DNA of 64,000 bases from Chthoniobacterales bacterium (GCA_046262735.1 JBHEMD010000216.1:3459-67458), one strand, 5' to 3'; shown: positions 918 to 56,455, counted from the stretch's first letter. The notes: generated from the letters alone by a model not told the origin. Numbers and translations: made by a program.

Positions 918-2641
918 TGGCAATCTTGATTGACGAGAAAAAGCGCGTGCTGGTGCAAGGGATAACCGGCCGGGAAGGTCAGGCGCGCACGCGCTTGATG
1001 CGCGAGTACGGCACCAATGTGGTCGCGGGCGTGACCCCGGGCAAAGGCGGGCAGACTGTTCTTGGGGTGCCCGTGTTTAACACGCCGCAGGAGGCAGTGA
1101 AGGCGTTGGGGAAGATCGACATCAGCGTGCTTTTCGTTCCAGCGGCCGGCGTCAAAAACGCGGCCATTTCTGCGATTGAATCGGGAATCAAACTGACCGT
1201 GCTGGTGCCGGATCGCGTGCCGGTGTGGGACGCGATGGAAATCGCAGCCGCCGCCAAAGCAAACGGCGCGACTTTTCTGGGGCCAAATACACTTGGCGTG
1301 TTGAGCCCGGGCAAAGGCGTCGTCGGAATGATTGGTGGTCGCGCTGAGAGTGCAAGACAGTGGTTCAAGCCCGGAATTCCAAAGGGAATCGGCGTGATCA
1401 GTCGTTCCGGCGGGATGGCATCAAGCACCGGCTATTACCTCGGACAAGCCGGCGTTCGCATTTCCACAATCGTGCACATTGGAGGCGATGCGGTGCTCGG
1501 CATTCGTCTGCCTGACGCGGCGCTGATGTTTGAAGCCGATCCGCTCACTGAAGCGATCGTGATCTTTGGCGAGATCGGTTCGTCACAGGAAGAGGAACTT
1601 GCGCAACTGATCATCGATCGGAAAATTACCAAACCATTGATCGCCTACATCGGGGGCAAGGCGGCCCGGGAAGGCACGCGCTTCAGTCATGCCGGCGCGA
1701 TTATCGAAGGCGGGCGCGGCACGCACGACGGAAAAGTGAAAGCGTTGCGTGACGCCGGCGCGACCGTGGTCGATGCGTTTGGCGATCTGCCGGCTGCCTT
1801 GGTTGAAATTCTGAAGCGAATAAAAGGACAAAGTTTGATGAGTGAAACTGATAAGAATGCGGTTTGGAATACGGCTGTCACACGGATCGAGCCGAACCGG
1901 GTAGCCGTACGCGGTTACGACATCGCCGAGCTGATGGGCCGCATTTCGTTCGGCGCGGCAGTTTATTTGATCCTGACTGGCGAACTGCCCTCAGCGGCTG
2001 TCGGCCGATTGATGGACGCGATTTTGGTTTCGTCGATCGATCACGGCGCGACACCACCGAGCGCATTGGCGGCGCGCACTGCCGCATCCACCGGCGCGTC
2101 ATTGAGCGCCGCGGTTGCTGCCGGTGTGATGTCGATCAACCGTCACCACGGTGGCGCGATTGAGGATTGCGCCCGCCAACTGAAAAAAATTGCCAATCTT
2201 TCAACGCGAGAATCGATTTCGTTGAATGAAGCGGCTGCGCACACGCTCGATGCCATGCGCCAAGCGGGCGAACGGATGCCGGGATTCGGTCATCGCTATC
2301 ACACCAAAGATCCGCGCACGACGCGACTTTTCGAGCTGGCGCGCGAAGCCGGGGTGGATGGACTACACATGCACGCGGCGCGTGCCGTTGAAAAATGCTT
2401 CGCCGATGCGAAAAAATCGCTGCCCATCAACGTGGACGGCGCAATCGGCGCGATCCTGGCCGATTTGGGAATGAACCCCGCCGCCTTCAACGGCATTTTC
2501 ATGATCGCACGCACGCCCGGGCTAGCCGCGCACGTGATCGAAGAACAAACCCGCGAAAAACCAATGCGCCGAATCGATCCGATCAATCACGGCTACGACG
2601 GGCCATCACCTCGATCTCTAACCACGAATGAACACGAATAA
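917..2641 (+). CDS. SucD-like CoA-ligase alpha domain fused to a citryl-CoA-lyase/citrate-synthase-like domain (ATP-citrate-lyase large-subunit architecture)
   Basis: N-terminus VLVQGITGREG...GVTPGKGG is a CoA-binding fold. RFSHAGAII is the phosphohistidine loop. C-terminal HHGGAIE ... GFGHRYHTKDPR are citrate-synthase-family catalytic motifs. Confidence 0.75.
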   Translation: MAILIDEKKRVLVQGITGREGQARTRLMREYGTNVVAGVTPGKGGQTVLGVPVFNTPQEAVKALGKIDISVLFVPAAGVKNAAISAIESGIKLTVLVPDRVPVWDAMEIAAAAKANGATFLGPNTLGVLSPGKGVVGMIGGRAESARQWFKPGIPKGIGVISRSGGMASSTGYYLGQAGVRISTIVHIGGDAVLGIRLPDAALMFEADPLTEAIVIFGEIGSSQEEELAQLIIDRKITKPLIAYIGGKAAREGTRFSHAGAIIEGGRGTHDGKVKALRDAGATVVDAFGDLPAALVEILKRIKGQSLMSETDKNAVWNTAVTRIEPNRVAVRGYDIAELMGRISFGAAVYLILTGELPSAAVGRLMDAILVSSIDHGATPPSALAARTAASTGASLSAAVAAGVMSINRHHGGAIEDCARQLKKIANLSTRESISLNEAAAHTLDAMRQAGERMPGFGHRYHTKDPRTTRLFELAREAGVDGLHMHAARAVEKCFADAKKSLPINVDGAIGAILADLGMNPAAFNGIFMIARTPGLAAHVIEEQTREKPMRRIDPINHGYDGPSPRSLTTNEHE

Positions 2642-2712
2642 ACACGTATTCATCAGCAGATATACGCAACGGTTGTCGTGCTTCGTGTCCATTCGTGTCT
2701 ATTAGTGGTTAT

Positions 2713-3294
2713 ATGAAATACGGCGTAACAGAGATCGGGGAGCTTTTTCCCAGCTTGATGGAGATCAAGGACGAATCGCTGCGCGAAAAAGTGGCGGCGG
2801 TCTGGAACGAAGCGATCACCGCCGGCTGCGGCGGGAAAGGCTGGACTTTCGACGAACTGCGCGCGGTCAAGTTCACTCTGCTCGCCGGCGACATCGAGAT
2901 GACCTTTGTCGAGCATCTCAATTCCTGCGCGCGCCAATGCATCGCGATTGCCGATGTGCTGGTGAGCGCGTTCCGCTGCGGCATCCCCATCGAGCGCGAT
3001 TATCTCATCGCCGGCGCGTTGCTCGCCGATGTCGGCAAACCGCTCGAATATGCCAGGGACGCGTCAGGGAGAGTAGTTCAGGGAGAATTCGGGCAACAGG
3101 TACGCCACCCATTCAGCGGTGTCGCCCTCGCCTACAAACACGAAATTCCCGGCGAAGTTCTGCACATCATCGCGACGCACAGTCACGAAGGCGACAAGGT
3201 CGAGCGCTCGATCGAGTCGATCATTTTCCACCACGCCGACTTCGTCGATTTCGATATCGCCAAGGTTCTCGGGAAACGCGCCGGGAAAAAGTGA
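2713..3294 (+). CDS. HD-superfamily domain protein (variant motif)
   Basis: VEHLNS...ALLADVGK...ATHSHEGD...FHHADFVD layout matches an HD phosphohydrolase fold, but the HD doublet reads AD. Start is ambiguous (GTG 2695 or ATG 2713). Confidence 0.55.
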   Translation: MKYGVTEIGELFPSLMEIKDESLREKVAAVWNEAITAGCGGKGWTFDELRAVKFTLLAGDIEMTFVEHLNSCARQCIAIADVLVSAFRCGIPIERDYLIAGALLADVGKPLEYARDASGRVVQGEFGQQVRHPFSGVALAYKHEIPGEVLHIIATHSHEGDKVERSIESIIFHHADFVDFDIAKVLGKRAGKK

Positions 3295-3323: not shown

Positions 3324-6278
3324 TCATTGTTTCGCCAACAATTGTCGTAGCACGAACGGAAGAATCCCGCCATGCCGATAGTAATCGATCTCGATTGGTG
3401 TATCGATGCGCAGCTTCACCGGAACTGAGCGCGATTCGGAACCTCTTTTGATCTCGAGGGTGACTTGCTGCCCCGGTTGAATCGAATCCGACAATCCGGT
3501 GATCGAAAAGATTTCGGAGCCGTCCAACCCGAGCGTTTGCGCGTTTGTATCTTCGGCAAATTGCAGCGGCAGCACGCCCATCCCGACGAGGTTCGATCGA
3601 TGAATTCGCTCAAAACTGGACGCAATAACCGCTTTTACCCCAAGTAAACGTGTTCCCTTCGCCGCCCAGTCGCGTGATGAACCGGTCCCATATTCGTGCC
3701 CGGCCAAAATGATAAGCGGGACGTTTTTCTCCCGGTATTTCATTGCCGCATCAAAGATCGACATTTGTTCCGCTGTAGTGGCCGCTGTCTCAGCGGCAGG
3801 CGCAGATTTGCCGCCCGGGACGGCGGCCTCTACCGGAAAATAATTTGTCACACCTCCTTCGGTGCCCGGTACCATCAAATTTTTGATCCGGACGTTCGCG
3901 AACGTTCCACGCGTCATGACCAAATCGTTTCCGCGCCGTGAGCCGTAACTGTTAAAATCTTCCGGCTGAACACCGCGCGAAATGAGGTACTGACCGGCCG
4001 GCGAGGTCGCTTTAATCGCGCCTGCAGGCGAAATGTGATCCGTGGTCACAGTGTCTCCAAAGATCCCCAGCGCCCGCGCACCGCTGATGTTGTCGATCTT
4101 GCCGACTTCCATTGAGAAATCCTGGAAGAAGGGCGGCTCGTGGATGTAATCGCTCTTTGTGTCCCATTGATAAACTTCGCCCGTGCTCGATGGAATTTCG
4201 TTCCACTTCGGGTTTTGACCCGCGAAATCGCGATAAAGTTTGCGAAATACTTCCGGTTTCAGCGCCGACTGCATCGCGTCACGGATTTCTGTTAACGATG
4301 GCCAAAGATCGCGCAGAAAAGTTTCCTTGCCATCCTTGTCCTTGGCGATGGGCTCTTTGCTCAGATCGACATCCACGCGTCCAGCGAGCGCGAACGCCAC
4401 CACCAGCGGCGGCGACATTAGAAAATTCGCCTTAATGTTTTGATGGACGCGCGCTTCAAAATTCCGGTTTCCCGAAAGGACCGACGCAGCGACCAGATCG
4501 TATTCGTTGATCGCCTTTTCAATATTGGGATGGAGCGGTCCGGAGTTTCCGATGCAGGTCGTGCAGCCGTAGCCGACGAGATTAAAACCGAGTTGGTCGA
4601 GATATTTTTGCAGACCGGTTTTGTCGAGATAATCGGTCACCACGCGCGAACCGGGCGCGAGCGAAGTTTTCACTGCCGGGTCGATTTTTAATCCACGTTC
4701 GATCGCTTTCTTGGCCAGCAAACCCGCCGCCAACATCACGCTCGGATTGCTTGTGTTTGTGCAACTCGTGATCGCGGCAATCAGCACGCTGCCATGACCA
4801 ATCTGGCTTTTCCCGTGGCGGAACGGATCAGCGGCCGAATCTTTCAGTTCCTTCGCGGTGTCCGGGGTCGGCCGATTGCTTATCATCTCAGCCTTGTTGC
4901 GCTCTTCGCCGGGCTCGAGTCGCGCATCGGGCTTGTCGGTCGAAAGCATGTCGCCGTCCGCCGGTGCGCTGCCATTCAGTTGGACCAAATGTTTTGCGTT
5001 AAGATCGACATCTTCCTTCCCGTAACCGCCGTCCTTCACCGGTTTTTTCAATAGCGAACGAAAAGTTTCACCAAGCGCCGGAAGATTGATCCGGTCCTGC
5101 GGACGCTTCGGTCCGGCCACGGCGGGCTGCACCTCGCCGAGATTCAATTCGAGATCGACGCTGTAATCGATTTCGCCTTTCCCCGGCATGCCGAACATTT
5201 TCTGCGCGCGAAAATAATTTTCGAACGCGGCGCATTGTTCGTCAGTTCGCCCGGTCGCCCGCAAGTACGCGACCGATTCCTGGTCGATCGGGAAAAAGCC
5301 CATGGTCGCGCCGTATTCGGGCGACATGTTGCCGATCGTGGCGCGGTCCGGCACCGGCAACGAGGCCGCGCCTTCGCCATAAAACTCGACGAATTTCCCA
5401 ACGACTTTTTGGGCACGCAGCATCTCGGTGATGTGCAACACCAGGTCGGTCGCGGTCACCCCTTCGCGCAATTGGCCGGTCATGTGCACGCCCACGACTT
5501 CCGGCGTGAGAAAATAAACCGGCTGACCGAGCATTCCCGCTTCGGCTTCGATGCCGCCCACACCCCAGCCGACGACGCCGAGGCCGTTAATCATCGTCGT
5601 GTGCGAGTCAGTTCCAACGAGCGTATCGGGGTAAAAAAGTAACGCAGGCATCTTGCCTGCATTCTTTTGGGTTACAGGCTGGAAGCCTGCGTTACTGAGC
5701 ACGCCTTTCGCCAGATATTCGAGATTCACCTGGTGAACGATTCCGATGCCGGGCGGGATGAGCTGGAAGGTTTTGAATGCCTGTTGGCCCCACTTCAAAA
5801 ATTGGTAGCGCTCGCGGTTGCGCTTGAACTCCATCTCCAGATTCAATTGCAACGCTCTGGTTGAGCCGAAGAAATCGACCTGGACGGAGTGATCGACCAC
5901 GAGATCGACCGGGACGAGCGGCTCGATGATTTTCGGGTCGCCGCCGAGCCGTTTCACCGCGCTGCGCATCGCGGTAAGATCGACAACCAGCGGGACGCCG
6001 GTGAAATCCTGGAGCACGATCCGCGCGACCACGAACGGGATTTCTTCATTCGCCGGTTTCTTCGCATTCCATTTCGCCAGCGTCTCAACGTCTTTGCGCC
6101 GAACTTTTTTCCCGTCGCAATTGCGCAGCACGGATTCGAGCACGATTCGAATGCTCACCGGCAACCGCGAAATTCTCGCGACCCCTTGCTCCTCCAGCGC
6201 CGGGAGCAAATGGAGAAATCCTTCGCGGCCGTTGCCGGCGTCGAACTTCTTCAGCGTGTTGAACTCGTCCATTGTCAT
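3324..6278 (-). CDS. acnA: aconitate hydratase A
   Basis: 984 aa with full-length aconitase motifs: [55 protein letters not shown] and a C-terminal swivel domain. Confidence 0.95.
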
Positions 6279-6801: not shown

Positions 6802-6893
6802 GGTTTGGTCCTCCGGTTTGCGTTAAATCGGGGGGAATTCAGTATAAGATCGACATCTGGCGGGTCAAAGGGAGAACGTGAAACCACCGGTTG

Positions 6894-7515: not shown

Positions 7516-8151
7516 ATGACTACTTCTCTTCCAACCGAACAACGTTTGGCCACACTGCGCGCGCTGCTCGAATCGCAGGAGGCATATCGAGGCCGCTTTG
7601 CGCGAGTCGCATTGATTGGAGGGACGTTGTCGATCTTGACCGCCGCGGCGTTGTTCATCAATGACGAGGTTACGCCGTTGCTCGACCGGCCGATCCGGCC
7701 GCGGGAATTCGCCTTGGCGTGGCTCATCGTGCTGGCGCTTACCGTGCTGAGCGGAGCGCTTCTATCGATAAGGGCGGCGCGAACGGCAGAGGCCGTTTCC
7801 AAGAGGCCGCGGCTAAAATTGCTGCTCGCTACTCTCGCGCCTTATTTGCTTATTCCCGGCGCGTTCACCGCGTGGTTTTTTGGCACCGGTTATCTCGGAG
7901 GCGCCGAGCTCGATCTCGTTGTCGTGTGGATCGCGTTCTACGGCCTGATGTTGGTGTCAACCGCCGTGTTTGCTCCGCGCGCGATCGTTCTTCTCGGCTG
8001 GGTCTTTCTCCTCAGCGCTGTCGCCGTGCCGCTTCTGGAGGAGAAGCTCGATCTCTGGATCGGTGACATGCCGAGTTTGCTCATGGGACTGACCTTCGGC
8101 CTTTATCATTGGATTTACGCCGTCCTCAACTGGCGAGCGAGGCTGGGCTAA
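7516..8151 (+). CDS. hypothetical polytopic membrane protein
   Basis: 211-aa ORF with 5-6 hydrophobic helices, 4 nt after the previous gene. No recognisable motif. Confidence 0.5.
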   Translation: MTTSLPTEQRLATLRALLESQEAYRGRFARVALIGGTLSILTAAALFINDEVTPLLDRPIRPREFALAWLIVLALTVLSGALLSIRAARTAEAVSKRPRLKLLLATLAPYLLIPGAFTAWFFGTGYLGGAELDLVVVWIAFYGLMLVSTAVFAPRAIVLLGWVFLLSAVAVPLLEEKLDLWIGDMPSLLMGLTFGLYHWIYAVLNWRARLG

Positions 8152-8449: not shown

Positions 8450-8451
8450 AC

Positions 8452-10397: not shown

Positions 10398-11054
10398 GTG
10401 CCATGCTTTGGCATGCCGGCGCCCAGCTCCATTGTCGATCTTAGGAAGTTGCTGGCCGAGCGGTTTCCGCAGCGCAGCACACCGGCGGCGACAGTGTTGC
10501 GGAGCGGTATCGCGTCGCTCGATCAAATCAGCGGTGGCGGGCTGCCGAAAAGTGGGATCACCGAATTGATTAGCCCCCAAATAAACGCGGGGAGCGCTTC
10601 GCTCATTCATGCGCTTGTGCAAAGCGCGCACCAGGCGAACGAGTTCGTCGCATTGATCGATGGCCGAGATTCATTTGATCCATCTGGGTTAATCAATTCG
10701 TGTTTGCATCGTTTACTTTGGGTGCGCTGCCAGAGAGCATTTGACGCGGTTAAAGCCGCGGATCTGCTCTTGCGCGATGGCAATTTCCCACGGGTGATTG
10801 TCGATCTTGTCCTGAATCCGCCGGAGGAGCTGCGCAAAATTCCCCAGACCAGCTGGTATCGTTTGCAACGGCTGGTCGAAGCGGTGCCGACGGCATGTCT
10901 GGTCATGACCCGGCAAAGCGTGGTCAGCAGTGCGCAACTGAAACTCGTGCTCGAAACGCAATGGAGCTTGGAAAGCCTGGAAAATGAGAATGCAACCGCG
11001 CGATTGCGTTTTCGCGTCCGGCGCGCGCACCTCAAATCGGAAATGAGCGATTGA
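10398..11054 (+). CDS. imuA: ImuA-like SOS mutagenesis protein (RecA/KaiC-fold)
   Basis: LDQISGGGLPKSGITELIS...ALIDGRDSFDP pattern. Preceded by a LexA box. ATGA overlap with the imuB-like gene. Confidence 0.7.
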   Translation: MPCFGMPAPSSIVDLRKLLAERFPQRSTPAATVLRSGIASLDQISGGGLPKSGITELISPQINAGSASLIHALVQSAHQANEFVALIDGRDSFDPSGLINSCLHRLLWVRCQRAFDAVKAADLLLRDGNFPRVIVDLVLNPPEELRKIPQTSWYRLQRLVEAVPTACLVMTRQSVVSSAQLKLVLETQWSLESLENENATARLRFRVRRAHLKSEMSD

Positions 11055-11584: not shown

Positions 11585-12277
11585 TCACCGGCGGGGCGGA
11601 CGATCGGCAATTTCCGTCCGGTCCACCTGGACGGATTTTCGTTCCATCAACAGGCTGTAAACGAAACCGCCGGCGGCAGCGCCGATGAACGGACCAAGCC
11701 AGTAAACATAATGGTCGTGCCAAAAATTTGCGGCCAGCGCGGGGCCGAAGACGCGCGCGGGGTTCATGGCCGCGCCGGTCAGCGGTCCACCGAACAAGAT
11801 ATCCAGGGTGATTGTCGATCCAATCGCGAGACCAGCGACGCGCCGTCCGCGTTCATCAATGGCCGTGCCAAACACAACAAAGACGAGAAAGAAGGTGAGG
11901 ATCGCTTCGACCAAAATCCCCTGAGTCGGGTTTAAATTGATAGCGAGCTGCGGTGTGCCAGTGACAACGACATCCCGGCCAAAAAGACCCAGACAAATCA
12001 ATCCTGCGGTGAATCCGCCGAGTAATTGCGCGCTCCAGTAACGGACTGCATTGGCGATAGTCATGTGACCACCGCAAAGCAAACCGAACGTGACAGCGGG
12101 ATTCAGTTGGCCGCCAGAGATATGCAGGGTCGCGGAAACAAATGCCGCGATGGTCAGCCCATGCGCCAACGCGACCGCGAGCACGTCGTGCCCCGCAGTT
12201 TTGATCGCGCCGATACCGACAAAAATCAGCGCAAACGTGCCGACGAATTCTGCGAGCCATGGACGAAGTTTTTCCAT
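11585..12277 (-). CDS. aqpZ: aquaporin Z / MIP-family channel
   Basis: Two NPA boxes (GGQLNPAVTFG, GAAMNPARVFGPA) and six TM helices. ATG at 12277 preferred over TTG at 12289. Confidence 0.9.
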   Translation of the reverse strand: MEKLRPWLAEFVGTFALIFVGIGAIKTAGHDVLAVALAHGLTIAAFVSATLHISGGQLNPAVTFGLLCGGHMTIANAVRYWSAQLLGGFTAGLICLGLFGRDVVVTGTPQLAINLNPTQGILVEAILTFFLVFVVFGTAIDERGRRVAGLAIGSTITLDILFGGPLTGAAMNPARVFGPALAANFWHDHYVYWLGPFIGAAAGGFVYSLLMERKSVQVDRTEIADRPPRR

Positions 12278-15193: not shown

Positions 15194-15228
15194 GCAAAAG
15201 TGTCGATCTCGCGAGACGTGGTGAACGT

Positions 15229-18085: not shown

Positions 18086-18142
18086 CTGAAATTAACCTGC
18101 CGCGAAAGAGGAAATCGCGCCTGCGCTAAGATCGACAACCGC

Positions 18143-36275: not shown

Positions 36276-36364
36276 CTAAGGGAGCGGAGTCAGCCAGAGG
36301 GTTGTAAGACCCTGCTCGAGTTCGAACTGATCGCCCTCGATCCCCTGTCGATCTAACTGGCAGC

Positions 36365-42337: not shown

Positions 42338-42363
<26 letters not shown>
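41557..42363 (+). CDS. hypothetical PD-(D/E)XK-fold protein, MmcB-family-like
   Basis: RVDLAAY...AVFECKQALVDLRRD (D...ExK) followed by CANLFYLVLPEEL...PLGWGAL, reminiscent of MmcB DNA-repair proteins. Start uncertain. The 3' end overlaps gpmI convergently by 26 nt. Confidence 0.45.
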
Positions 42364-43897: not shown

Positions 43898-43992
43898 ACC
43901 TGCCGCACTCTGGCGACGATTACAAAGATCGACAAGTGCTTTCCGGTTGCAGCGTTTGCGACGGTCGCAGACCGCCGCTACAGGGGAAACAA

Positions 43993-45330: not shown

Positions 45331-46641
45331 TTACTCGCTGGTCGGTTGCACCAGCGGCACGAAGACGAACGGAGGCGGCTGCGGAAGTCCCGTGGGAGGA
45401 CCTTCGGCGGGCGGCCCTTCGGCTGGGATCTCTTTCCCATCCTTGCCGAGTCCCAAGTCTTTGCCTTCGCTCACGGTTTTGCCGTCAGACATAATACCTG
45501 TGCGGCTGCTGGCACTGGTATTCGCGGCAATCAAGCTTTTCGTGTTCTTACCAAAAGCCGAAATCTCAGCGACCGTGAATGCGGCATCCTCCCGAACCGT
45601 TGGCGTCCATTTGACCAGGATGTAACGGCCGGTCATCTCGGGGAAATCCACGGCAGCGCGCCCGGCGCCCTCGTCGAGAACCGATCCGACCGGCGTCAGG
45701 TTGGAGACTGTGCTCTCGCTCAGCCGCAACGACTCTGGTGCGGCTTGCGAACCGGGCAGCGACTGCAAAACGTAAAAGTCCACAGCCGCGTGTCGCGGCG
45801 AATAGAGCGCGGATATCCTTCGCAGTGTGGTAACTTTGCCCAGATCGACAATCGTTGCTGGCGTAGAATCAGCCGCAGCGAAAGTGTAGGTCGAGGCCGG
45901 TTGGCCATCGATCATGTTGTTGGCCTGCACGGGATCATCACCCGAACTGACGTAGAGCGCTCGGGACTTTGCATGCACGTCAGTCAGGCTGTACCTGATC
46001 AACCCAAACGTGTCGGATTTTTCTGTGGCAGTGAAATTCCGCGCACGCGGCATCGTGAAAGCAGAAAGTGCGGGCGTTGAATAAATGCCAAACCCGGCAA
46101 TTCGGCCATGCGTGGCGACGTCGAAGGTCAGGCGGACATATTTGGCTTCGGCCGGCCCGATCTTCGCTCGAAGAACACTCCCGGCCAGCTTCTGCTCAGA
46201 GACTTCACGCCACTGCGGGCTGTCGGCCGGCAGTTTGGCACTGGCGATCGCAATCTTCACGGCGCCCTTCGTGCCATGATTCAGGAACGAAATCGTGTCG
46301 ACGTTCTCGATCTTCGGAAATGAAATCAGCACGGTGGTGTTGCCGGCTGGCAAAGCGTAACCCACTGTCGGATCGTCACACAAAAGTGCTGCAACCGCGG
46401 TGTTGGTGTCGTCGGATTTCGAGCTGAGCCGCAAATCGGTGATTGCTGTACCGTTCGGTGCTTCCAGTGCTGCACCGTGATAATAGCGGGCAAGGTTTTC
46501 CGGATAGGCCGGCACTTGCGCGACTGTTATCGGCGGTACTTTTTGGAGTACCAAATCCGTGGCGAATGAGGATGCACAAATCAACGAAAGTGAGCAGATG
46601 AACCCGCACGTTTTGAGGAGCGAAGAAGTAGATGCACTCAT
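45331..46641 (-). CDS. secreted hypothetical protein with two internally similar beta-rich domains and a Pro-rich C-terminus
   Basis: Signal peptide MSASTSSLLKTCGFICSLSLICASSFA. No catalytic motif recognised. Confidence 0.6.
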   Translation of the reverse strand: MSASTSSLLKTCGFICSLSLICASSFATDLVLQKVPPITVAQVPAYPENLARYYHGAALEAPNGTAITDLRLSSKSDDTNTAVAALLCDDPTVGYALPAGNTTVLISFPKIENVDTISFLNHGTKGAVKIAIASAKLPADSPQWREVSEQKLAGSVLRAKIGPAEAKYVRLTFDVATHGRIAGFGIYSTPALSAFTMPRARNFTATEKSDTFGLIRYSLTDVHAKSRALYVSSGDDPVQANNMIDGQPASTYTFAAADSTPATIVDLGKVTTLRRISALYSPRHAAVDFYVLQSLPGSQAAPESLRLSESTVSNLTPVGSVLDEGAGRAAVDFPEMTGRYILVKWTPTVREDAAFTVAEISAFGKNTKSLIAANTSASSRTGIMSDGKTVSEGKDLGLGKDGKEIPAEGPPAEGPPTGLPQPPPFVFVPLVQPTSE

Positions 46642-46849: not shown

Positions 46850-47491
46850 CTATTTTTCCGCGGCCGGCAGAGAGGCCAGAGTTTTTGCGTAGAGCGCGGC
46901 CGGCGTCGCGCGATACTTGTGAACGCCCGCATAAGCGTAGAAGGGAATATAAGCACGGCCGCGAAATCTGTCAGCCCGGCATGCGGCCCAATTGATTGTC
47001 GGATCCAAGACGTACGTGCCGCGTTCGGTCTCCCATTCGATCCAAGCGTGTGTCCTGCGACTGAGAATGGTCCGTTTGCCGATAACCAGCCGGACGCGTT
47101 CAGCCCCGTGAAGTTGCATCCGGTGATAAAGGGCAACCGCTTTGCCCTTGCAATCAGCAACCGGCGCGGTTTCCACCTCTTCGGGCGTTTTCCACTCGGA
47201 ACTAAAGCCGTACGGAATGGCACGGAGGTCTTCGATCCAGTGATTGATCAAAGCGAGCGACAGATTGTGGTTGGCAGAATCATTTATGGAGAGCAGCACA
47301 GGTGAAATTCGCGTCATCTGTCGATCGTAAGGGGTGGCATTGACCGGGAGATAAACGGATTCGGCGAGGCAGGAGAAGGAAAAGAGACAAACAAGGCCGA
47401 GAATGAAAGGCCAAAGTTTGCGAGCGGTAAAAGGGCGAATGCTTACAAGAATCATAGTAATTATGACTTCTATAAGCAGCGGGAATGCCAA
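46850..47491 (-). CDS. transglutaminase-like cysteine peptidase (BTLCP-like)
   Basis: Cys-His-Asp triad context: VADCKGKAVALY, THAWIEWE, YVLDPT. N-terminal signal/anchor. Confidence 0.7.
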   Translation of the reverse strand: MAFPLLIEVIITMILVSIRPFTARKLWPFILGLVCLFSFSCLAESVYLPVNATPYDRQMTRISPVLLSINDSANHNLSLALINHWIEDLRAIPYGFSSEWKTPEEVETAPVADCKGKAVALYHRMQLHGAERVRLVIGKRTILSRRTHAWIEWETERGTYVLDPTINWAACRADRFRGRAYIPFYAYAGVHKYRATPAALYAKTLASLPAAEK

Positions 47492-50345: not shown

Positions 50346-52268
50346 ATGCACGTCATGCCAACGCGTCTGCGCCGTGTGAACACTCAAGCATTGAGTGTCG
50401 CGCAAACACCTTATCGCTGGCTTGTCCTCGCGATAGCCATTTCGATTGCGGCACTCACCTGGTTGGTTTTTGGGCAGACGCTGCGGCACGATTTCGTCAA
50501 CTACGACGATCACCGCTACGTTTACGAGAACACAAAAATAACTGCGGGCCTGAGCGCGAGCGCGATCGCCTGGGCCTTCAGCCACATTCATTCCGAGAAC
50601 TGGCATCCGCTCACAACGATTTCGCACATGCTGGACTGCCAGCTGTACGGGTTGAAGCCAGGCGGACATCATTTCAGCAATGTGCTCCTGCATGCGACCG
50701 CAGCGATTCTTCTCTTCGTCGCGCTTTGGCAAATGAATGGGGCTTTATGGCGCAGCGCATTTGTTGCGGCGATTTTCGCCGTTCATCCTCTGCACGTCGA
50801 GTCGGTCGCGTGGATCGCCGAACGCAAAGACGTGTTAAGCGCGGTGTTTTTCATGCTGACCCTGCTTGCCTATCGCCAATACGCACGTGCGCCAGGCTTC
50901 TGGCGTTACCTCGCTGTCGTGTTCCTGTTCGCCTGCGGGCTAATGTCAAAAGCGATGCTCGTGACAGTGCCATTTGTTCTTTTGCTTTTGGATTACTGGC
51001 CGCTGAAGAGGTTCCAATCACGGACAAGATCGACAATCGCAAGAATAATCGCGGAAAAGGTCCCACTCGTTGTGCTCGCGAGTGTGTCCGGGATCGTCAC
51101 ATTTCTGGCGCAGAACCCCGCCATTGCCCAAACTGAGCAACTGCCAATTTCATCACGTATCAACAATGCGCTGGTGAGCTACGTTGCTTACATCTGGCAA
51201 ATGCTCTGGCCGGCGAAGCTCGCCGTTTTCTATCCGCATCCGGAAAACCGACTCCCGATCTGGCAAGTCGTGGCGGCTGCGGTCGCGCTCATCGCCTTCA
51301 CTGCGTTCGCCCTCGCCCTGCGCAAAAGACGTCCTTACCTCATCGTTGGCTGGCTCTGGTATATCGGAATGCTGATTCCGGTAATCGGCATACTGCAAGT
51401 GGGGTGGCAAGGCCACGCCGACCGATACACTTATCTGCCGCAAATCGGTCTTTACATTTTGATTGCCTGGAGTGTTGGCGATCTGACAGCCAGGTCGCGG
51501 CACGTCAGGCAAATCGTGGCTCTGGGGGTGGCAGCACTTATCGCAGCGTGTGCCTGGCCTGCCCGGATTCAGACTTCCTACTGGCGTAACAGCGAAACGC
51601 TCTGGGTGCATACACTCGCTTCCACCAACAACAACGACGTCGCCGAGAACAACCTCGGCATTGTCCTGCTCCAGAAGGGCCGAGTGGACGAAGCAATCCC
51701 CCGTTTCGAACGCGCGATCGAAATCCGGCCCGAGAATGCGCCAGCCCACGACAACCTGGCGAAAAGTTTTCTGCGAAACGGAAAGTTAGCGGATGCAATG
51801 GCGGAGTATCGCAAGCTTCTCGAGATTCAGCCTGAAAACGTCGAAGCGCATAATATCATGGGCACTGTGCTCATCCAACAAGGGCGCATCAGAGAGGCCA
51901 TCGAACAATGGCAGGAAGCGTTAAAGATCAATTCAGCGAATGGGAACGCGAAAAGCAATCTGGCATGGGTGTTCGCCACGTGCCCGGACGAATCGGTCCG
52001 CGATGCGAACAGGGCCGTTCAGCTGGCCGAAGACGCGCTGCGCCTTTCCGGCGGCAAAAACGCCCTCGTCCTGCGCACGCTCGCCGCGGCTTACGCGGAG
52101 AGCGGTCGCTTCACTGAAGCGGTCGAAACGGCGCGGCGCGCTGCGGAATTGGCGAAGCAACAGGGCAACACTGGATTGGCCGCCGAGCTCGAAAGCAGTA
52201 TTGCGCTTTACCAAAGCGGTGGAGCGCTGCGCGACCCGAGCCTCACTACGAAAGCGGTTCCGCCCTAG
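50346..52268 (+). CDS. GT-C + TPR (TMTC-like) membrane protein, paralogue 2
   Basis: DFVNYDDHRYVYEN acidic loop and multiple TM helices, then TPR repeats. Start at MHVMPTRL avoids overlap with the remnant gene. Confidence 0.8.
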   Translation: MHVMPTRLRRVNTQALSVAQTPYRWLVLAIAISIAALTWLVFGQTLRHDFVNYDDHRYVYENTKITAGLSASAIAWAFSHIHSENWHPLTTISHMLDCQLYGLKPGGHHFSNVLLHATAAILLFVALWQMNGALWRSAFVAAIFAVHPLHVESVAWIAERKDVLSAVFFMLTLLAYRQYARAPGFWRYLAVVFLFACGLMSKAMLVTVPFVLLLLDYWPLKRFQSRTRSTIARIIAEKVPLVVLASVSGIVTFLAQNPAIAQTEQLPISSRINNALVSYVAYIWQMLWPAKLAVFYPHPENRLPIWQVVAAAVALIAFTAFALALRKRRPYLIVGWLWYIGMLIPVIGILQVGWQGHADRYTYLPQIGLYILIAWSVGDLTARSRHVRQIVALGVAALIAACAWPARIQTSYWRNSETLWVHTLASTNNNDVAENNLGIVLLQKGRVDEAIPRFERAIEIRPENAPAHDNLAKSFLRNGKLADAMAEYRKLLEIQPENVEAHNIMGTVLIQQGRIREAIEQWQEALKINSANGNAKSNLAWVFATCPDESVRDANRAVQLAEDALRLSGGKNALVLRTLAAAYAESGRFTEAVETARRAAELAKQQGNTGLAAELESSIALYQSGGALRDPSLTTKAVPP

Positions 52269-54484
52269 CGGGGCTGCGACCCTGCTGCCGGCTCCCTGTG
52301 GTAAGCGGAGCCCAAGCGGTAGAGCGCGATTTCGTTCCGAAGCGCGTTTGCCAGCAGTCCAGTATCTTGCAACTGGAGCGCTCGTTCTGCCGCGTCCACC
52401 GCATCGCTGAATCGCCCGGCCTCGGCATACGCCGCAGCAAGAATCCGCAGGACAACCGGCTGATTGCCGCCTGAAAGGCGACTAGCTTGTTCCGCCATCG
52501 CAACTGCTTCCGGTCCATTTCGGAGCAGTGGGTCGGAAGCAGTTGCGAGCAGCCACGCCAGATTGCTTTGTGCAGCCGCGTGATTCGGCGCGAGAGCGAG
52601 CGCCTTTCGGTACTCGGCAATCGCTTCCGCGATTTGGCCTTTCTGCAGAAGAGCCGATCCGAGATTGGCGTGAGCGTCTGCGTTCTGCGGCATCAGCTCG
52701 AGCGTCTTTTTGTAATGCGCGGTTGCCTCGTCGGTTCGGCCTTTGCGAAGCAGCGCATTCGCGACGTTGTAGTGCGCTTCCGGCTGCTCGGGCGAGATGG
52801 TCAAGCCTGCCAAATAGCGTACGATTGCACCATCGACATCGCCTTTGAAGAGCAGCGCGTCTGCGAGGTTAATGCACGCTCCGGCGTGGTTCGGGTGCAT
52901 CGTCAACGTTTGTTCGTACTGGGCGATTGCCTCATCCAGCCGTCCACTCTCGAAAAGCGCTAGGCCCAGATTGTTGTGGGCTTCTCCATCCGCTGGATTG
53001 ATGAGCAACGCCTTCGTGTAATGTCCAATTGCGTCGTCGAGCTCGCCTTTATCGACTAGAAGACGGGCAAGATTGTAATGTGCTTCGGCATAATTTGGCC
53101 GTAGTGCGATGGCCTGGCGGTAATGCGAAATAGCTTCGTCACTTTCGCCGCGCCCCCGCAGAACGATGCCCAGGTTGTAATGTGCCATCCAACACCCGGA
53201 ATTTTCCGCCAGCGTGCGGGTGTACAACGTCACGAGATCGCGATACACGAGCGTTTGCCGCCACGTTAAAACGCCGAGCACGAACAGAACCGCTCCAGCG
53301 AGCGCCGGCCGCAAAAGTGATCTCCACCTGAGCCGATCAATTGCAGTGGTGATCGCAGCGCCCGTCAAGGCGAGCGGCCCCATGCTGGCCAGATACTGAA
53401 AATGGTCGCTCACAAACGAGTAACGAAAGAAATAGACGTTGAAAAAGCCTAGGACCGGAAAAAGGGCGGCAACGAAATAGAGAGCGGCAAGGAGGACTGG
53501 CCGCCGCCATGGTGAGCGGACCAACCACAGAGCGGCCAGCGCTGCGAATGCCGCGACCAGCGGCAGATAGGCTGCCAGATGCGAAGAATTAATCGGCCAG
53601 CGGGGATAAATAAAGATCAGCGGATGCGGCCACAAAAGTTTGCCCGTATAAAACCAGATTGCCCGCCCAGCGATAATCAACCGCTCGAGCGGCGTTTGCG
53701 CCCATTCATGGCCGGTCGCGCCGGCGTGAAATTTCTGTTCCCAGATTGTCCAGACGCTGGCCGCAACGGACACGAGCGCAAAAGGAACAATGCTCGCAAC
53801 GTCCATGGCGCCGATCCGCCTTTTTCGCCACCAAAGACAGAGAGCAATTACCACCGGCAACATCACGGTGGAAGGTTTGCTGAGGATGGCGAAGACAAAA
53901 AATAGGAGTGAAAGAATCCATCGCCACCAACGGCCGCGCTTTTCGTTCTGTGCGTCGAAGTTCAAGTAAAACAAGATCGACATGAGATAGAACAATGCAG
54001 ACTGCGTATTCTTCAGCTCCGTTATCCACGCGACCGACTGCACCATTACCGGATGCAGCGCCCAAAGCGCGGCCCCGAGCCACGCTCCGGTGATACTGAG
54101 CTGCCGCAGCACGCGCCACAGCAGCACGGCCGAGATAGCATGCATGACGACGTTGAGGGCATGATACGGCCAGGGCGCCAGGCCGACGAGCTTGTGCAGA
54201 ATCCAAAACGTCGTCAGCACCAGCGGATAGTAAACCGCACGCGTCGTCGTCCAGATTTCCTTTAATCCCAGCGGCCCAATCACGCACGGATTCTGCGTGA
54301 CGTGGGCTTCGTCATCCCAAATAAAATCGAAGCGAACGACCCGGGAATAGGCCACGCACACGAGCACAACCAGAACTAAAGCCGCCAGCCACTGTCCCCG
54401 TGTCGTTCGGAACAACGACGCAGAAGGTTGGCGCATTATTGATCGCGATGCGTTCACGATCGGGTGTGCTGTTGATGAATCCAC
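52265..54484 (-). CDS. GT-C + TPR (TMTC-like) membrane protein, paralogue 3
   Basis: FDFIWDDEAHVTQNP acidic loop and about 11 TM helices, then about 9 TPR repeats. Its 3' end overlaps paralogue 2 by 4 nt (convergent). Confidence 0.8.
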   Translation of the reverse strand: MDSSTAHPIVNASRSIMRQPSASLFRTTRGQWLAALVLVVLVCVAYSRVVRFDFIWDDEAHVTQNPCVIGPLGLKEIWTTTRAVYYPLVLTTFWILHKLVGLAPWPYHALNVVMHAISAVLLWRVLRQLSITGAWLGAALWALHPVMVQSVAWITELKNTQSALFYLMSILFYLNFDAQNEKRGRWWRWILSLLFFVFAILSKPSTVMLPVVIALCLWWRKRRIGAMDVASIVPFALVSVAASVWTIWEQKFHAGATGHEWAQTPLERLIIAGRAIWFYTGKLLWPHPLIFIYPRWPINSSHLAAYLPLVAAFAALAALWLVRSPWRRPVLLAALYFVAALFPVLGFFNVYFFRYSFVSDHFQYLASMGPLALTGAAITTAIDRLRWRSLLRPALAGAVLFVLGVLTWRQTLVYRDLVTLYTRTLAENSGCWMAHYNLGIVLRGRGESDEAISHYRQAIALRPNYAEAHYNLARLLVDKGELDDAIGHYTKALLINPADGEAHNNLGLALFESGRLDEAIAQYEQTLTMHPNHAGACINLADALLFKGDVDGAIVRYLAGLTISPEQPEAHYNVANALLRKGRTDEATAHYKKTLELMPQNADAHANLGSALLQKGQIAEAIAEYRKALALAPNHAAAQSNLAWLLATASDPLLRNGPEAVAMAEQASRLSGGNQPVVLRILAAAYAEAGRFSDAVDAAERALQLQDTGLLANALRNEIALYRLGSAYHREPAAGSQPR

Positions 54485-54517
54485 GCGCGGCTAAATTGAC
54501 CGCAGCGCTTCAGCGCT

Positions 54518-56455
54518 TCAGCGCAACGGCCAAAGCGAGTAAGCGTCGCTCTGTTTGGCAACGCGCAGGTTCTCCTCTGCTTCCGGAAAGTCAGGATGCA
54601 GACGCAACGCTTCTTCGAATTGCACGATCGCTTCGGAGACTTTGCCTTCGCGCATGAGGATTTTTCCCAGGAAATTGTGCGGCTGGGCAAGCTTGCGGTC
54701 GATTCGGCTCGCCTCCTGGTAATGCGCTTTTGCTTCCTGCCACTCGCCGTTCTCGACCAGCGCGGTGGCAAGATCGACATGTGCATCGGGCAGGCGAGGA
54801 TCGAGCTCGACCGCGCGCCGATAGTTCGCGATCGCGTCGTCGAGTTTGCCTTGCTTTTCGAGGAACGCGCCATAGCTCTGCCACGCCAGCGCCGACCGGG
54901 GATTGGCACGAATAGCAGCTTCGCATTCCGCCGCTGCTTTCTCGATTTGGCCGAGTCGCTCCAGAACGAAGGCATAGCCCGAGTGATACTCACCGTTATT
55001 GGGGTCGACCCGCAAGGCCGCTTGGAAATGAGTTTGCGCCTCCTCGAGTTGGCCTTTGCCAATCAGAACCCCGGCAAGATTGACATGCGCCTTTGCCGAG
55101 TTGGGATTGACCCGTAATGCCGTGGAAAATTCAGCCGCCGCTTCATCGGGCCGATTCGCATCCTGCAAGGCTGTGCCGTAGTTGACGTGCGCACGTGCGC
55201 TGGTCGGAAGATCGGCCACGATGGCAGCGAGACGATTCAGTTGGGTTCGCGGCGAATGCACCTCTGTAAACCAGAGTATTCCGAGCGGGATGACGAAGAC
55301 ACCGACCCATTTGACGCCGTGCACCAGCCAACTCGGCAGAAAACCGCTGCTCGATGAGTCGGGTGTGGCGCCACCACTGATACCGAGCGATTGGCGGGTG
55401 GATTTCTCGCGCACCTTCCAGATAAAACCGTCGTAATAGAAATGCAGCAGCGCTGACGCCGTAACTACCCCTGTCAGGATGCGTTTGAGGGAATCGACGC
55501 CGATAGACGACTTGAAATAACCAAGCGCGCCGTAGGCCAGAACCAGGCCGATGTAAACACCGACAAGCGAGCCACTGCGCCGGAAAACAAAACGCATGAA
55601 TCCGCTGATCGAACTGTCGGCTTCGACGCGTTTGCGGTTGTAGATCCAGACAAGCGAGAGGTACTGCACATCGTGAAAAACCTCGAACAAAGCGACGCCA
55701 ACCAAGACGCTCGCGACGATGTTGTTGCAGTACCACCAGAAGGCGATGCTCGTGACGAGGAGCGCAAGCTTGACCGGGTTCGGCCGTTTCCCGCTCGACC
55801 ACATCCAGACAAAATTCGCAAGAAACAGGGCTGAAATGATGAGCGCGAACGTGAGCGCTGCCTGTTGGCCGGCACGAAAAAGGTCCGGCGAAATGAACGG
55901 CCCCCCGGCCGAGTAATAGCTGTCCAGGGTATCAGTCATTCGCTGCGGCGAAAGTAGGACCGCGGTTATAAACCAAACCGCACAAAGCGCGAAATCCAGC
56001 CGACGCGTCAGGCTCGCGAAGGAACCTACTTTGGCGTCGTAAATGCGGCAGAACCCATACGTCTGCATCATGCCGTGCCACACACCCCAGATAAAGGTGA
56101 CCAGCACGATTCCCTTGAGGTCCCAGAAGAAAAATGTCGCGCACACGGCGATTAGAAAAACCGGCGCGAAAATGAAGCGCCACTTGAACCGCTTGAATAG
56201 CGCCCGGTCGCCATAAGCGCGGATCATTCCGGGCAGGTGGTGACCCATTGCCCCAAACGCGGCGACGAAGAGATAAATATCTTCCGGGCCCCATCGCGTT
56301 TGTGCCACGAGGAAAATCGGAATGATCAACAGCGGGGTGCAGACGTAGAGAACCAGGTCGCGCCAACTATCGAGAATCCACAGAGCCGATTTGCGCGCCG
56401 CGGCCGGCGCCGTTGGAACCGTTTCCGGACGTGAAAACGCGGAGAGAAGCTGCAT
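54518..56455 (-). CDS. polytopic His-rich membrane domain of unknown family fused to TPR repeats
   Basis: About 380 aa with about 10 TM helices carrying GHHLPGMIRAYGD, WHGMMQTYGF, FHDVQYLSL and LHFYYDGF, then about 7 TPR repeats. There is no DD/DE GT-C loop. Confidence 0.7.
   Translation of the reverse strand: MQLLSAFSRPETVPTAPAAARKSALWILDSWRDLVLYVCTPLLIIPIFLVAQTRWGPEDIYLFVAAFGAMGHHLPGMIRAYGDRALFKRFKWRFIFAPVFLIAVCATFFFWDLKGIVLVTFIWGVWHGMMQTYGFCRIYDAKVGSFASLTRRLDFALCAVWFITAVLLSPQRMTDTLDSYYSAGGPFISPDLFRAGQQAALTFALIISALFLANFVWMWSSGKRPNPVKLALLVTSIAFWWYCNNIVASVLVGVALFEVFHDVQYLSLVWIYNRKRVEADSSISGFMRFVFRRSGSLVGVYIGLVLAYGALGYFKSSIGVDSLKRILTGVVTASALLHFYYDGFIWKVREKSTRQSLGISGGATPDSSSSGFLPSWLVHGVKWVGVFVIPLGILWFTEVHSPRTQLNRLAAIVADLPTSARAHVNYGTALQDANRPDEAAAEFSTALRVNPNSAKAHVNLAGVLIGKGQLEEAQTHFQAALRVDPNNGEYHSGYAFVLERLGQIEKAAAECEAAIRANPRSALAWQSYGAFLEKQGKLDDAIANYRRAVELDPRLPDAHVDLATALVENGEWQEAKAHYQEASRIDRKLAQPHNFLGKILMREGKVSEAIVQFEEALRLHPDFPEAEENLRVAKQSDAYSLWPLR

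Follow-up and report, generated by a model that had tools for sequence, protein, structure and literature searches.

The 64-kb window analysed here, the whole stretch of DNA from an uncultured soil Chthoniobacterales (Verrucomicrobiota) bacterium, carries 28 exact copies of the 10-mer TGTCGATCTT (word A). We put at about even the chances that RW-TGTCGATCTT belongs to the DNA-uptake-sequence type (DUS/USS, collectively DUES), as a genomic 'self' word specific to its lineage and spread by molecular drive. The genomic signature of such a word is present: it is abundant and sharp, its use does not depend on frame, strand or position, it is maintained with turnover in particular lineages, and relatives have a second word. 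Until now, two proteobacterial families have been the only known hosts of DNA uptake sequences. We found no prior description of the word in the literature.

Abundance and sharpness of the word

The exact copies are distributed 14 per strand, and all 28 start positions listed in the first-pass annotation proved correct. Markov models of order 0-4 predicted 0.08-0.46 copies, and dinucleotide shuffles of the window yielded a mean of 0.22 and at most 2; the excess is more than 60-fold over expectation. Maximal-order Markov models were uninformative for TGTCGATCTT because its sub-words come almost only from the motif. The 8-mer core TGTCGATC occurs 43 times in the window versus 3.0 expected, and therefore 15 copies have a variant tail, in agreement with the earlier estimate of about 15. 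The examples given of these were real sites, although two were off by one (2129 for 2130 and 25733 for 25732) and those at 686, 4364, 26443, 34897 and 45843 had been left out.

Exact copies of the word:
1112..1121, minus, aclA (ATP-citrate lyase alpha-type), antisense, K-I-D-I
3754..3763, minus, aconitase, sense, M-S-I-F
4091..4100, plus, aconitase, antisense, K-I-D-N
5001..5010, minus, aconitase, sense, D-V-D-L
5976..5985, minus, aconitase, sense, V-V-D-L
6846..6855, minus, intergenic, divergent spacer, 45 nt upstream of AhpC-family gene
7628..7637, plus, 211-aa gene, sense, L-S-I-L
10433..10442, plus, 218-aa gene downstream of lexA, sense, I-V-D-L
10799..10808, plus, 218-aa gene downstream of lexA, sense, I-V-D-L
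15910..15919, minus, N-terminal part of MotA/ExbB-family ORF (start uncertain), sense, I-V-D-L
18128..18137, minus, intergenic between two minus-strand genes, 43 nt upstream of glgE
18904..18913, minus, GCV_T-family gene, sense, I-V-D-L
19478..19487, minus, GCV_T-family gene, sense, L-S-I-L
21896..21905, plus, PPIase gene, antisense, Q-D-R-H
24573..24582, plus, menaquinone-biosynthesis gene, sense, I-V-D-L
28043..28052, minus, ketoacyl synthase, antisense, Q-D-R-Q
28854..28863, plus, ketoacyl synthase, sense, D-V-D-L
32797..32806, plus, UDP-glucose dehydrogenase, sense, D-V-D-L
33694..33703, plus, UDP-glucose dehydrogenase, sense, N-V-D-L
34072..34081, plus, rsmB, sense, A-V-D-L
35016..35025, plus, rsmB, sense, M-S-I-L
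40341..40350, plus, type III pantothenate kinase, antisense, K-I-D-T
41026..41035, plus, 406-aa gene, antisense, K-I-D-S
42352..42361, plus, iPGM, antisense, K-I-D-N
43925..43934, minus, intergenic divergent spacer, iPGM / alkaline phosphatase gene
51026..51035, minus, TPR protein (667 aa), antisense, T-R-S-T
53973..53982, minus, TPR/PMT_2 protein (739 aa), sense, M-S-I-L
54770..54779, minus, TPR protein (645 aa), sense, H-V-D-L

Core copies with a variant tail:
684..693, minus, TGTCGATCca, ORF upstream of aclA (probable aclB), antisense
749..758, plus, TGTCGATCgt, ORF upstream of aclA (probable aclB), sense, I-V-D-R
2130..2139, plus, TGTCGATCaa, aclA, sense
4362..4371, minus, TGTCGATCTg, aconitase, sense, D-V-D-L
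11813..11822, plus, TGTCGATCca, MIP channel gene, antisense
15201..15210, plus, TGTCGATCTc, intergenic
22241..22250, plus, TGTCGATCgt, peptidase M28, antisense
25732..25741, plus, TGTCGATCgc, DegT aminotransferase, sense
26441..26450, minus, TGTCGATCcT, intergenic, 52 nt upstream of tRNA-Tyr
26651..26660, plus, TGTCGATCgt, 150-aa ORF, sense
29813..29822, plus, TGTCGATCaa, ketoacyl-synthase-like gene, sense
34895..34904, minus, TGTCGATCTg, rsmB, antisense
36346..36355, plus, TGTCGATCTa, intergenic
45841..45850, minus, TGTCGATCTg, 476-aa gene, sense, I-V-D-L
47319..47328, plus, TGTCGATCgt, 213-aa gene, antisense

The word is the commonest 8-, 9-, 10-, 11- and 12-mer of the window. As had been noted, A or T precedes TGTC in 24 of the 28 exact copies, and across 358 kb of word-rich DNA the 5' flank is R-W, giving a full consensus, RW-TGTCGATCTT, of 10-12 bases. 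The same 358 kb contain 122 exact copies and no more than 14 of any one single-mismatch variant, the central CGA being nearly invariant; no extended AT-rich segments were detected flanking the word. Its density is about 1 per 2 kb. The word contains GATC/CGATC and is asymmetric, with no palindromy. We looked for inverted pairs of the word and for an association with terminators and found neither, and the 8-mer core was spaced not significantly more evenly than random in the window (CV 0.79, P = 0.07). The flanks of the 43 core copies are mutually unrelated.

The excess sits in DNA, not in proteins

With corrected gene calls, the exact copies of the window comprise 17 sense, 8 antisense and 3 intergenic ones, the last (6846, 18128 and 43925, already reported as spacer copies) in line with the non-coding fraction. 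The genic copies lie in 17 different, unrelated housekeeping genes and use five of the six reading frames; the unused one would give Cys-Arg-Ser. Together with the unrelated flanks, this bears out the earlier view that no single peptide explains the word, and dispels the concern, raised at the same time, that all copies might fall in paralogous segments. Sense copies read x-V-D-L 12 times (about 13 had been claimed) and (M/L)-S-I-(L/F) 5 times, as claimed, while antisense copies read K-I-D 5 times, Q-D-R twice and T-R-S-T once, the types previously listed but 8 in number rather than 6-7.

When synonymous codons were shuffled within each gene (300 shuffles), the exact word was recovered in 1.55 +/- 1.13 genic copies, with a maximum of 5, versus 24 observed, and the 8-mer core in 5.9 versus 35 observed genic copies. 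The word excess sits in DNA, not in proteins, and the excess over chance that had been claimed withstood dinucleotide, Markov and codon-aware nulls alike. V-D-L is encoded as GTCGATCTT in 11 of 17 cases in the window, CTT accounting for only 14% of Leu codons.

The sense strand holds 17 of the 25 genic copies in the window (18-19 had been claimed) and 52 of 86 in independent contigs. This bias exists but is modest, and for the core it is matched by the codon-shuffle null (sense:antisense 3.95 vs 2.04, the same 2:1 ratio as observed). It is therefore a probable by-product of word-tolerant frames, largely attributable to coding constraints, rather than evidence of a role in RNA. Furthermore, we observed no chromosomal strand polarity, the two strands being used 14/14 and interleaved in the window, and likewise in independent contigs.

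Maintenance among relatives and a second word

Of 80 related Chthoniobacterales species, about 18 have 2-7 copies of the word per 10 kb, and in the rest its density is close to zero; a single-gene tree of poor resolution does not unite the word-rich species in one clean clade. In 21 metagenome contigs originating elsewhere in such genomes we counted 4.6 extra word copies per 10 kb, and in 95 unrelated contigs with the same seed, zero. Many studies have yielded independent MAGs and metagenomes that contain the same word. None of the first 120 seed-bearing viral contigs reached host-like density (maximum 3 copies in 12 kb).

A check of orthologues in relatives, suggested in the first-pass annotation, revealed that per-base identity between word-rich species was 92% in the word versus 79% in the flanks, an effect absent from rich-versus-poor pairs (76% versus 77.5%). 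Exact conservation was observed in 61% of word-rich pairs versus 12% expected, and per orthologous site the exact word was kept by 32% of other rich species versus 3% of poor species. For example, the exact word is present in 17 of 80 relatives at the site orthologous to 1112..1121 (aclA), while the word-poor relative L030 has TAAATCGACA at the aconitase site matching 3754..3763 and unrelated sequence at the one matching 4091..4100. Many word gains are seen in a single species only, and some required several substitutions; in orthologue alignments, copies originate by substitution, not insertion.

A second word, GCCTAACGA (word B), is unrelated to word A and as sharp (101 exact copies in 238 kb). 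It is present in species without word A; a few species have both, and further species have neither. Word B lacks GATC and is oriented both ways, and the sole frames that it leaves unused are the two creating a stop codon. Word-A species spell V-D-L as GTCGATCTT in 23/37 cases, compared with 2/10 for word-B species and 7/33 for neither-word species. Word-B species spell S-L-G as TCGTTAGGC in 23/31 cases, compared with 3/39 for neither-word species, and overall Leu codon usage is equal across the three groups. Lineage specificity, orthologous preservation only in rich species and a second word in sisters strengthen the resemblance to uptake sequences first proposed from the window.

Comparison with known uptake sequences

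We propose that a competence machine resembling a type IV pilus would carry a DNA receptor with specificity for the word, that word-bearing fragments would be preferentially bound and imported, and that these would recombine homologously into the chromosome to generate new word copies, i.e. molecular drive. The word would build up in both orientations wherever coding constraints allow, up to a mutation-drive balance of about 1 per 2 kb. Sister lineages whose receptor has another specificity would acquire another word (GCCTAACGA), and those lacking such a receptor would have none.

Word-rich contigs carry a PilB-PilB-PilC-pilin operon (pilin N-terminus G|FTLIELL), at loci with 5 word copies per 12-21 kb. 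The suggested search for competence and type IV pilus genes thus found a pilus operon in the order, but in word-rich and word-poor species alike, and it therefore does not discriminate between the groups. ComEA, ComEC, DprA and a minor-pilin receptor were not located, none lying within the 64-kb window.

The DUS of Neisseriaceae is the 12-mer AT-GCCGTCTGAA, with dialects, and its receptor is the minor pilin ComP. Like DUS, the word is a non-palindromic 10-12-mer with a weaker two-base 5' extension, has by extrapolation copies on the order of a thousand per genome, in both orientations, lies in genes and spacers, occurs as exact copies that greatly exceed single-mismatch ones, differs between related lineages and is conserved in core genes. 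Unlike DUS, it belongs to another phylum (Verrucomicrobiota), is unrelated in sequence, has neither inverted-repeat pairs nor terminator association, has 86-89% of its copies within genes, and reaches about half the density of Neisseria.

Pasteurellaceae uptake signal sequences (Hin-USS AAGTGCGGT, Apl-USS ACAAGCGGT) share with the word a majority of copies in coding regions, frames set by tolerable peptides with distorted codon choice and local peptide content, alternative words by subclade, and no replication polarity. The word differs from USS in having no detected extended AT-rich flanking segments, in a specificity that appears sharper than the graded USS motif, and in its unrelated sequence and phylum.

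DUES are 9-10 nt long with hundreds to thousands of copies per genome, and the density and length of the word are within this published range (bioRxiv 10.1101/2025.10.24.684340). About half of Neisseriaceae and Pasteurellaceae DUES sit in terminators. Counting against the DUES reading, the word shows no inverted pairs or terminator association, and words A and B show no recognisable relationship, whereas known dialects, such as those of DUS, differ by 1-3 bases. The lack of significantly even core spacing, the unclean clade of word-rich species, the competence and receptor genes not located and the presence of the pilus operon in word-poor species also count against it.

Alternative explanations

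Appreciably less probable is that the word is the recognition site of a non-uptake chromosomal protein, its density being held high by selection. It could be an orientation-independent 'self' mark for recombination, repair or a defence nuclease (a Chi analogue without polarity), or a site for a nucleoid or segregation protein. Specificity sharp at the level of protein recognition, maintenance limited to some lineages and different words in sister lineages are all consistent with this, and the lack of host-like density in the viral contigs agrees with a mark of host 'self'. Chi and KOPS/AIMS-type polar octamers, which act as chromosomal 'self' signals, are likewise species-specific over-represented words tolerant of coding sequence. 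However, these octamers have a strong orientation bias relative to replication and only a moderate excess (Chi only a few-fold), whereas the word has a 14/14, interleaved strand distribution and exceeds expectation more than 60-fold. The known sites of nucleoid or segregation proteins are few in number and palindromic, positional turnover of the word is high, contrary to site-specific roles, and no candidate reader protein emerged.

We consider it unlikely that the word is a functionless by-product of biased repair or gene conversion, as proposed for cyanobacterial HIP1 (GCGATCGC), with a sequence-specific mismatch endonuclease, methyltransferase-linked repair or templated short-patch conversion turning near-matches into perfect copies. 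Origin by substitution and exact copies far above single-mismatch ones favor this account, as do likenesses to HIP1 and HIP variants: the word is hyperabundant in coding and non-coding DNA alike, lineage-specific, conserved at orthologous sites beyond its flanks, and contains GATC within a CGATC core. The HIP1 comparison made in the first pass nevertheless fails on a defining point because the word, an asymmetric 10-12-mer, is no palindrome, unlike the 8-bp HIP1. Furthermore, word B lacks GATC, no methyltransferase or Vsr gene lies within the 64-kb window, and known repair biases are weak skews only, on 4-5-mers. At about 20 bits, the contiguous information of the word is greater than methyltransferases or Vsr-type enzymes are known to recognise.

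An RNA-level signal (UGUCGAUCUU in mRNA) for a binding protein, sRNA or RNase would account for the sense bias in the window and independent contigs, yet near-symmetric strand use already makes it improbable, and we give it very little weight. Antisense copies make up about 35-40% of the genic ones and intergenic copies 8-14% of the total, the 2:1 core excess is already in the codon-shuffle null, the frame distribution tracks tolerable peptides, and word B is equally mixed in orientation.

Least probable of all is an ordinary repeat (a REP/MITE-type mobile element, paralogous segments, codon-pair bias or an assembly artefact), which has nothing past raw repetition in its favor and is effectively refuted by the unrelated flanks of 43 copies, 17 unrelated gene families in 5 frames, an excess that survives the codon-aware null, substitutions rather than insertions in orthologue alignments, and occurrence in independent MAGs and metagenomes of many studies. 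Genuine REP-like and tandem elements do exist elsewhere in the family.

Over-representation of word A in the window

A pattern search of the window recovered 28 copies of the exact 10-mer TGTCGATCTT (word A; reverse complement AAGATCGACA), 14 per strand, matching every coordinate reported in the first-pass annotation, and the base 5' of TGTC was A or T in 24 of the 28, as had been claimed there. Dinucleotide-preserving shuffles predicted 0.22 copies and Markov models of orders 0-4 predicted 0.08-0.46. The 8-mer core TGTCGATC occurred 43 times (3.0 expected), and word A is the top 8-, 9-, 10-, 11- and 12-mer of the window. The maximal-order Markov model initially proposed as a check was uninformative at k = 9-10 (25 copies predicted, 28 seen) because the 8- and 9-mer sub-words occur almost solely inside the motif; orders 0-4 and synonymous codon shuffles were used instead, and both revealed the excess.

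Direct reading confirmed that word A and its reverse complement differ, i.e. that the word is not a palindrome. Except for a weak R-W preference immediately 5', the flanks of the 43 core copies are mutually unrelated. The window has a G+C content of 58% without compositional discontinuity, and the spacing of word A copies within it showed no significant regularity beyond random. One stretch of normal composition is empty, which is not significant by itself (P = 0.06-0.35):

54780-64000: final 9.2 kb of the window, zero copies of word A or its core; TonB-dependent receptor, unknown 578-aa ORF, spermine-synthase-domain protein

Genes were called by ORF length and GC3 and named using Pfam. The named genes encode ordinary housekeeping functions (ATP-citrate-lyase alpha-type, aconitase, peroxiredoxin, LexA, GlgE, ParB, menaquinone, fatty-acid and LPS functions, RsmB, pantothenate kinase, iPGM, alkaline phosphatase, several TPR proteins and a TonB-dependent receptor, besides RNase P RNA and tRNA-Tyr), and no competence or DNA methyltransferase gene was found among them. 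Seventeen copies of word A are sense, 8 antisense and 3 intergenic; the genic copies (25/28) are distributed over 17 different genes rather than confined to paralogous segments. They use five of the six reading frames, the missing one being Cys-Arg-Ser, so that no single peptide explains the word, as originally proposed. Furthermore, when synonymous codons were permuted within each gene, thereby preserving protein sequences and codon usage, 1.55 ± 1.13 genic copies were obtained (maximum of 5 in 300 shuffles) versus 24 observed; the excess thus holds against a codon-aware null. V-D-L is spelled GTCGATCTT in 11 of 17 cases, when CTT accounts for only 14% of Leu codons. The excess of word A therefore resides in the DNA, and the use of frames is set by coding limits.

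Strand preference and orientation of word A

The bias of genic copies towards the coding strand seen in the first-pass annotation is present both in the window (17/25 sense) and in independent contigs (52/86). However, codon shuffling alone produces a 2:1 ratio in favour of sense for the core. We thus read the bias as the outcome of which frames tolerate word A, rather than as evidence of a role at the RNA level. On the grounds of strand symmetry and this null ratio, we rejected an RNA-level signal.

Along the window, the two orientations are interleaved (14/14, 9 runs in 64 kb). Orientations were also mixed in 21 further contigs carrying word A, polarity being assessed here at the scale of the window or contig. 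These observations rule out a polar octamer such as Chi or KOPS. Neither inverted pairs of word A within 120 nt nor copies of the word in terminators were found in the window or in the loci from 80 related species.

Distribution of word A among related species

Proteins 85-91% identical to the aclA product of the window were found only in Verrucomicrobiota, Chthoniobacterales, 'Spartobacteria' and Ca. Udaeobacter MAGs from soils and peat. The closest aclA gene in the collection of relatives shares only 82% identity at the DNA level, indicating that the species of the window is absent from it. We compared 1.3 Mb of DNA surrounding aclA in 80 species (loci designated by L numbers). The density of word A is bimodal: about 18 word-rich species carry 2-7 copies per 10 kb, word A usually being their top 10-mer, while most remaining species have zero copies or one copy at a conserved K-I-D-I site. 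The single-gene aclA tree is too poorly resolved to tell whether the word-rich species form one clade.

Word-rich DNA (358 kb) contains 122 exact copies and at most 14 of any single-mismatch variant. In the consensus, the central CGA is nearly invariant, position -2 is R and position -1 is W. Because exact copies outnumber single-mismatch variants so sharply, the word points to recognition by a specific macromolecule.

To look beyond aclA, metagenomes were scanned with one 14-mer form of word A as the seed, which returned 120 contigs. Twenty-one of these (159 kb, 53-56% G+C) carry 2-12 copies each, with 4.6 extra copies per 10 kb, whereas 95 others (545 kb) have the seed alone and serve as an internal control. 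A comparable density is thus also reached in other parts of such genomes. Extrapolation from the window and contig densities suggests that a 3-4 Mb genome would hold about 1,300-1,800 copies. Among the matches listed, no viral contig with the seed had word A at a host-like density, phages of this lineage being unrecognisable without the word; as a weak test, this result is compatible with a host-restricted process.

Maintenance and turnover at orthologous sites

Each copy of word A, together with 150 nt on either side, was aligned to the other loci. Among word-rich species, identity is 92% over the ten bases of the word versus 79% for the flanks, and the word is conserved exactly in 61% of the comparisons versus 12% expected from flank divergence. 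In contrast, when word-rich species are compared with word-poor ones, conservation of the word does not exceed that of its flanks (76% vs 77.5%), and the word is exact in only 5% of the comparisons. Since species pairs are not independent, we recounted per orthologous site: the exact word is kept by 32% of the other word-rich species versus 3% of the word-poor species.

Many copies are restricted to one species, and some gains needed several substitutions, amino-acid changes included. For instance, one related species carries AAGATCGACA (L037:18554) where its relatives have CATTTCGAGG. Compared to their orthologues, copies of word A always differ by substitution and never by insertion. Copies thus originate by substitution, are continually gained and lost, and are maintained in a lineage-specific manner, a pattern that would be expected if the density of the word mattered and its position did not.

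A second dispersed word in other species

A contrast search of all 80 loci revealed a second dispersed word, GCCTAACGA (word B; reverse complement TCGTTAGGC), and no third one. Word B has unrelated flanks and occurs in a different set of species, about 12 of the 80 (including L028, L064, L018, L035, L042, L025, L078, L019, L050, L051 and L063), with 101 exact copies in 238 kb and a sharpness equal to that of word A. Both orientations are present and interleaved. Four frames are used, the two unused ones being those that would hold TAA or TAG, and word B occurs in spacers at about twice the expected frequency. The window holds one copy. Both words are found together in a few species (aclA locus L008 and pilus-operon contig L201), and neither in many species.

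The top words of six other loci (L065, L032, L060, L009, L006 and L070) belong to local tandem arrays or REP-like elements and are not dispersed. Short-period tandem repeats of 12-18 nt gave misleading top 10-mers in three of them (L065:4792-5044, L006:5976-6066 and L070:4023-4083).

The spelling of peptides follows the word of the lineage. Of the V-D-L cases, 23/37 use GTCGATCTT in word A species, 2/10 in word B species and 7/33 in species with neither word. Conversely, 23/31 of the S-L-G cases in word B species use TCGTTAGGC, versus 3/39 in species with neither, and P-N-E uses CCTAACGA in 25/28 cases in word B species. Overall Leu codon usage is equal across the three groups. The peptides themselves are also enriched in the matching lineage, to which we gave less weight because shared orthologous sites inflate the counts. 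No obvious relationship links words A and B, which are better described as alternative words than as demonstrated dialects.

Candidate explanations for the words

The first-pass annotation had likened word A to both uptake sequences and HIP1, the cyanobacterial iterated palindrome. The likeness to HIP1 fails in one defining respect, word A not being a palindrome. Like the uptake sequences of Neisseriaceae (DUS) and Pasteurellaceae (USS), jointly DUES, word A is a sharp asymmetric word of 10-12 nt with about 0.4-0.7 copies per kb in both orientations, indifferent to frame and position within coding limits, maintained with turnover in a lineage-specific manner, and replaced by alternative words in sister lineages. 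Its copy number is of the DUS/USS kind (28 in 64 kb versus at most 0.46 expected; 4.6 per 10 kb elsewhere), and both orientations occur without polarity in the window and the 21 contigs. To our knowledge, only these uptake sequences match the combination, for which reason we propose a DUES-like system and give it an even chance of being correct. The signature itself is observed in the genomes. As for the mechanism, which we infer from it, a type IV pilus-type machine would carry a sequence-specific receptor favouring the uptake of word-bearing DNA, and the imported fragments would then spread the word by recombination.

Differences from known systems were also apparent. DUS and USS frequently form inverted-repeat pairs in terminators, whereas word A forms none and only 3 of its 28 copies are intergenic; it is about half as dense as the uptake sequences in Neisseria or Haemophilus; and words A and B are not near-variants, unlike uptake-sequence dialects. 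A 2025 survey lists uptake sequences for Neisseriaceae and Pasteurellaceae only, and gives them as words of 9-10 nt that number in the hundreds to thousands and have dialects and pilin receptors (bioRxiv 10.1101/2025.10.24.684340). Full-text literature searches returned nothing relevant on either word, on uptake sequences in Verrucomicrobia, or on competence in Udaeobacter or Chthoniobacterales. A word system that resembles uptake sequences but has unrelated words and belongs to a new phylum would thus appear to be novel, and we found no earlier description of one.

A search of all loci by regular expressions for ComEC, DprA, ComEA and pilins matched only PilB-type ATPases, which led to a conserved Chthoniobacterales operon encoding two tandem PilB/MshE-type ATPases, PilC and a pilin of about 200 aa (L007:16240-21230; contigs L201-L205). 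At its N-terminus the pilin reads G|FTLIELL; its middle is variable, and the C-terminal ...WIKNW is conserved. The operon is located some 5 kb downstream of aclA in a subset of species, beside the aconitase and isocitrate dehydrogenase genes. It is present in word-rich contigs (L201, L204 and L205) and in word-poor contigs as well, and therefore does not discriminate word status.

Two other explanations fit in part. The word could be read inside the cell, either by a nucleoid protein or as a self mark that lacks polarity and serves recombination or defence. Such a reader agrees with the sharpness and lineage specificity of the word, but one lacking polarity is without known precedent, and the positional turnover speaks against it. 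Alternatively, the word could be a by-product of biased repair, as proposed for HIP1. The substitutional origin of the copies and the GATC in the core agree with this explanation; however, word A lacks palindromy and exceeds the known methylase or Vsr specificities in length, and word B contains no GATC.

We consider it unlikely that the words are the read-out of a hitherto undescribed and rapidly re-programmable 'genome watermarking' system rather than uptake tags. Such a system would rely on a dedicated machine, which may be guided by nucleic acids or templated. This machine would write a lineage-specific 9-12-mer into any near-matching site by biased short-patch conversion, or would read it as an orientation-independent self signal in recombination or defence. 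Its specificity would switch wholesale among sister lineages (TGTCGATCTT, GCCTAACGA or none). That anything without a known counterpart lies behind the words seems similarly improbable to us.

Unrelated flanks and orthologues differing by substitutions rule out both a REP or MITE element, together with the genic location of 25/28 copies, and paralogy or an artefact, together with the codon-shuffle excess and the spread over 17 genes.

Although uncultured, the Ca. Udaeobacter relatives belong to the most abundant soil bacteria. If the signature reflects uptake, it would be the first case of sequence-specific uptake of self-DNA outside Proteobacteria and would imply frequent natural transformation within lineages in soil. 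Words A and B provide exact sequences for uptake or binding assays, and the contrast between species with A, B or neither offers a comparative-genomic route to the receptor. As lineage markers, the words could also help in binning and in recognising foreign DNA within these genomes. Should the signature not reflect uptake, the case is stranger: a sharp 20-bit word reshaping codons and peptides, with unrelated alternatives in sister lineages, would be without known explanation.

Other elements in the window and in related species

The following features were also observed in the window.

2619-2640 (-) and 2690-2711 (+): 22-nt inverted repeat TAACCACGAATGAACACGAATA / CATTCGTGTCTATTAGTGGTTA around the aclA stop codon, spacer of about 50 nt
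9688-11575 (+): lexA, unknown 218-aa gene with two copies of word A, 174-aa Y-family (IMS) polymerase fragment
23072-24001 (-): parB without adjacent parA, next to peptidase M28 and menaquinone-biosynthesis genes
35169-35576 and 35589-36275 (+): split peptidase M29 gene, profile positions 3-131 and 165-385
43969-43982: REP-like intergenic element with AGACCGCCGCTACA

The layout downstream of lexA resembles a truncated lexA-imuA-imuB SOS mutagenesis cassette. parB may lie near the replication origin; the GC skew of the window is flat. The split of the peptidase M29 gene points to a pseudogene, a frameshift or an error in sequencing.

Downstream of aclA, the element ATTCGTGTCnATTnGTGGTTA is kept in several species of any word status (L003, L010, L019 and L060); in one of them it is amplified, six copies lying in tandem at a period of 114 nt (L060:11704-12360). 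It may act as a terminator or a regulatory hairpin, or may be REP-like. The REP-like element with AGACCGCCGCTACA recurs across the order (L032, at 7125-7420 and 14691-14778, L042, L204, L205, L011, L019, L023, L047 and L053), often in inverted pairs 60-200 nt apart and, in L032, as a tandem array with a 45-nt period.
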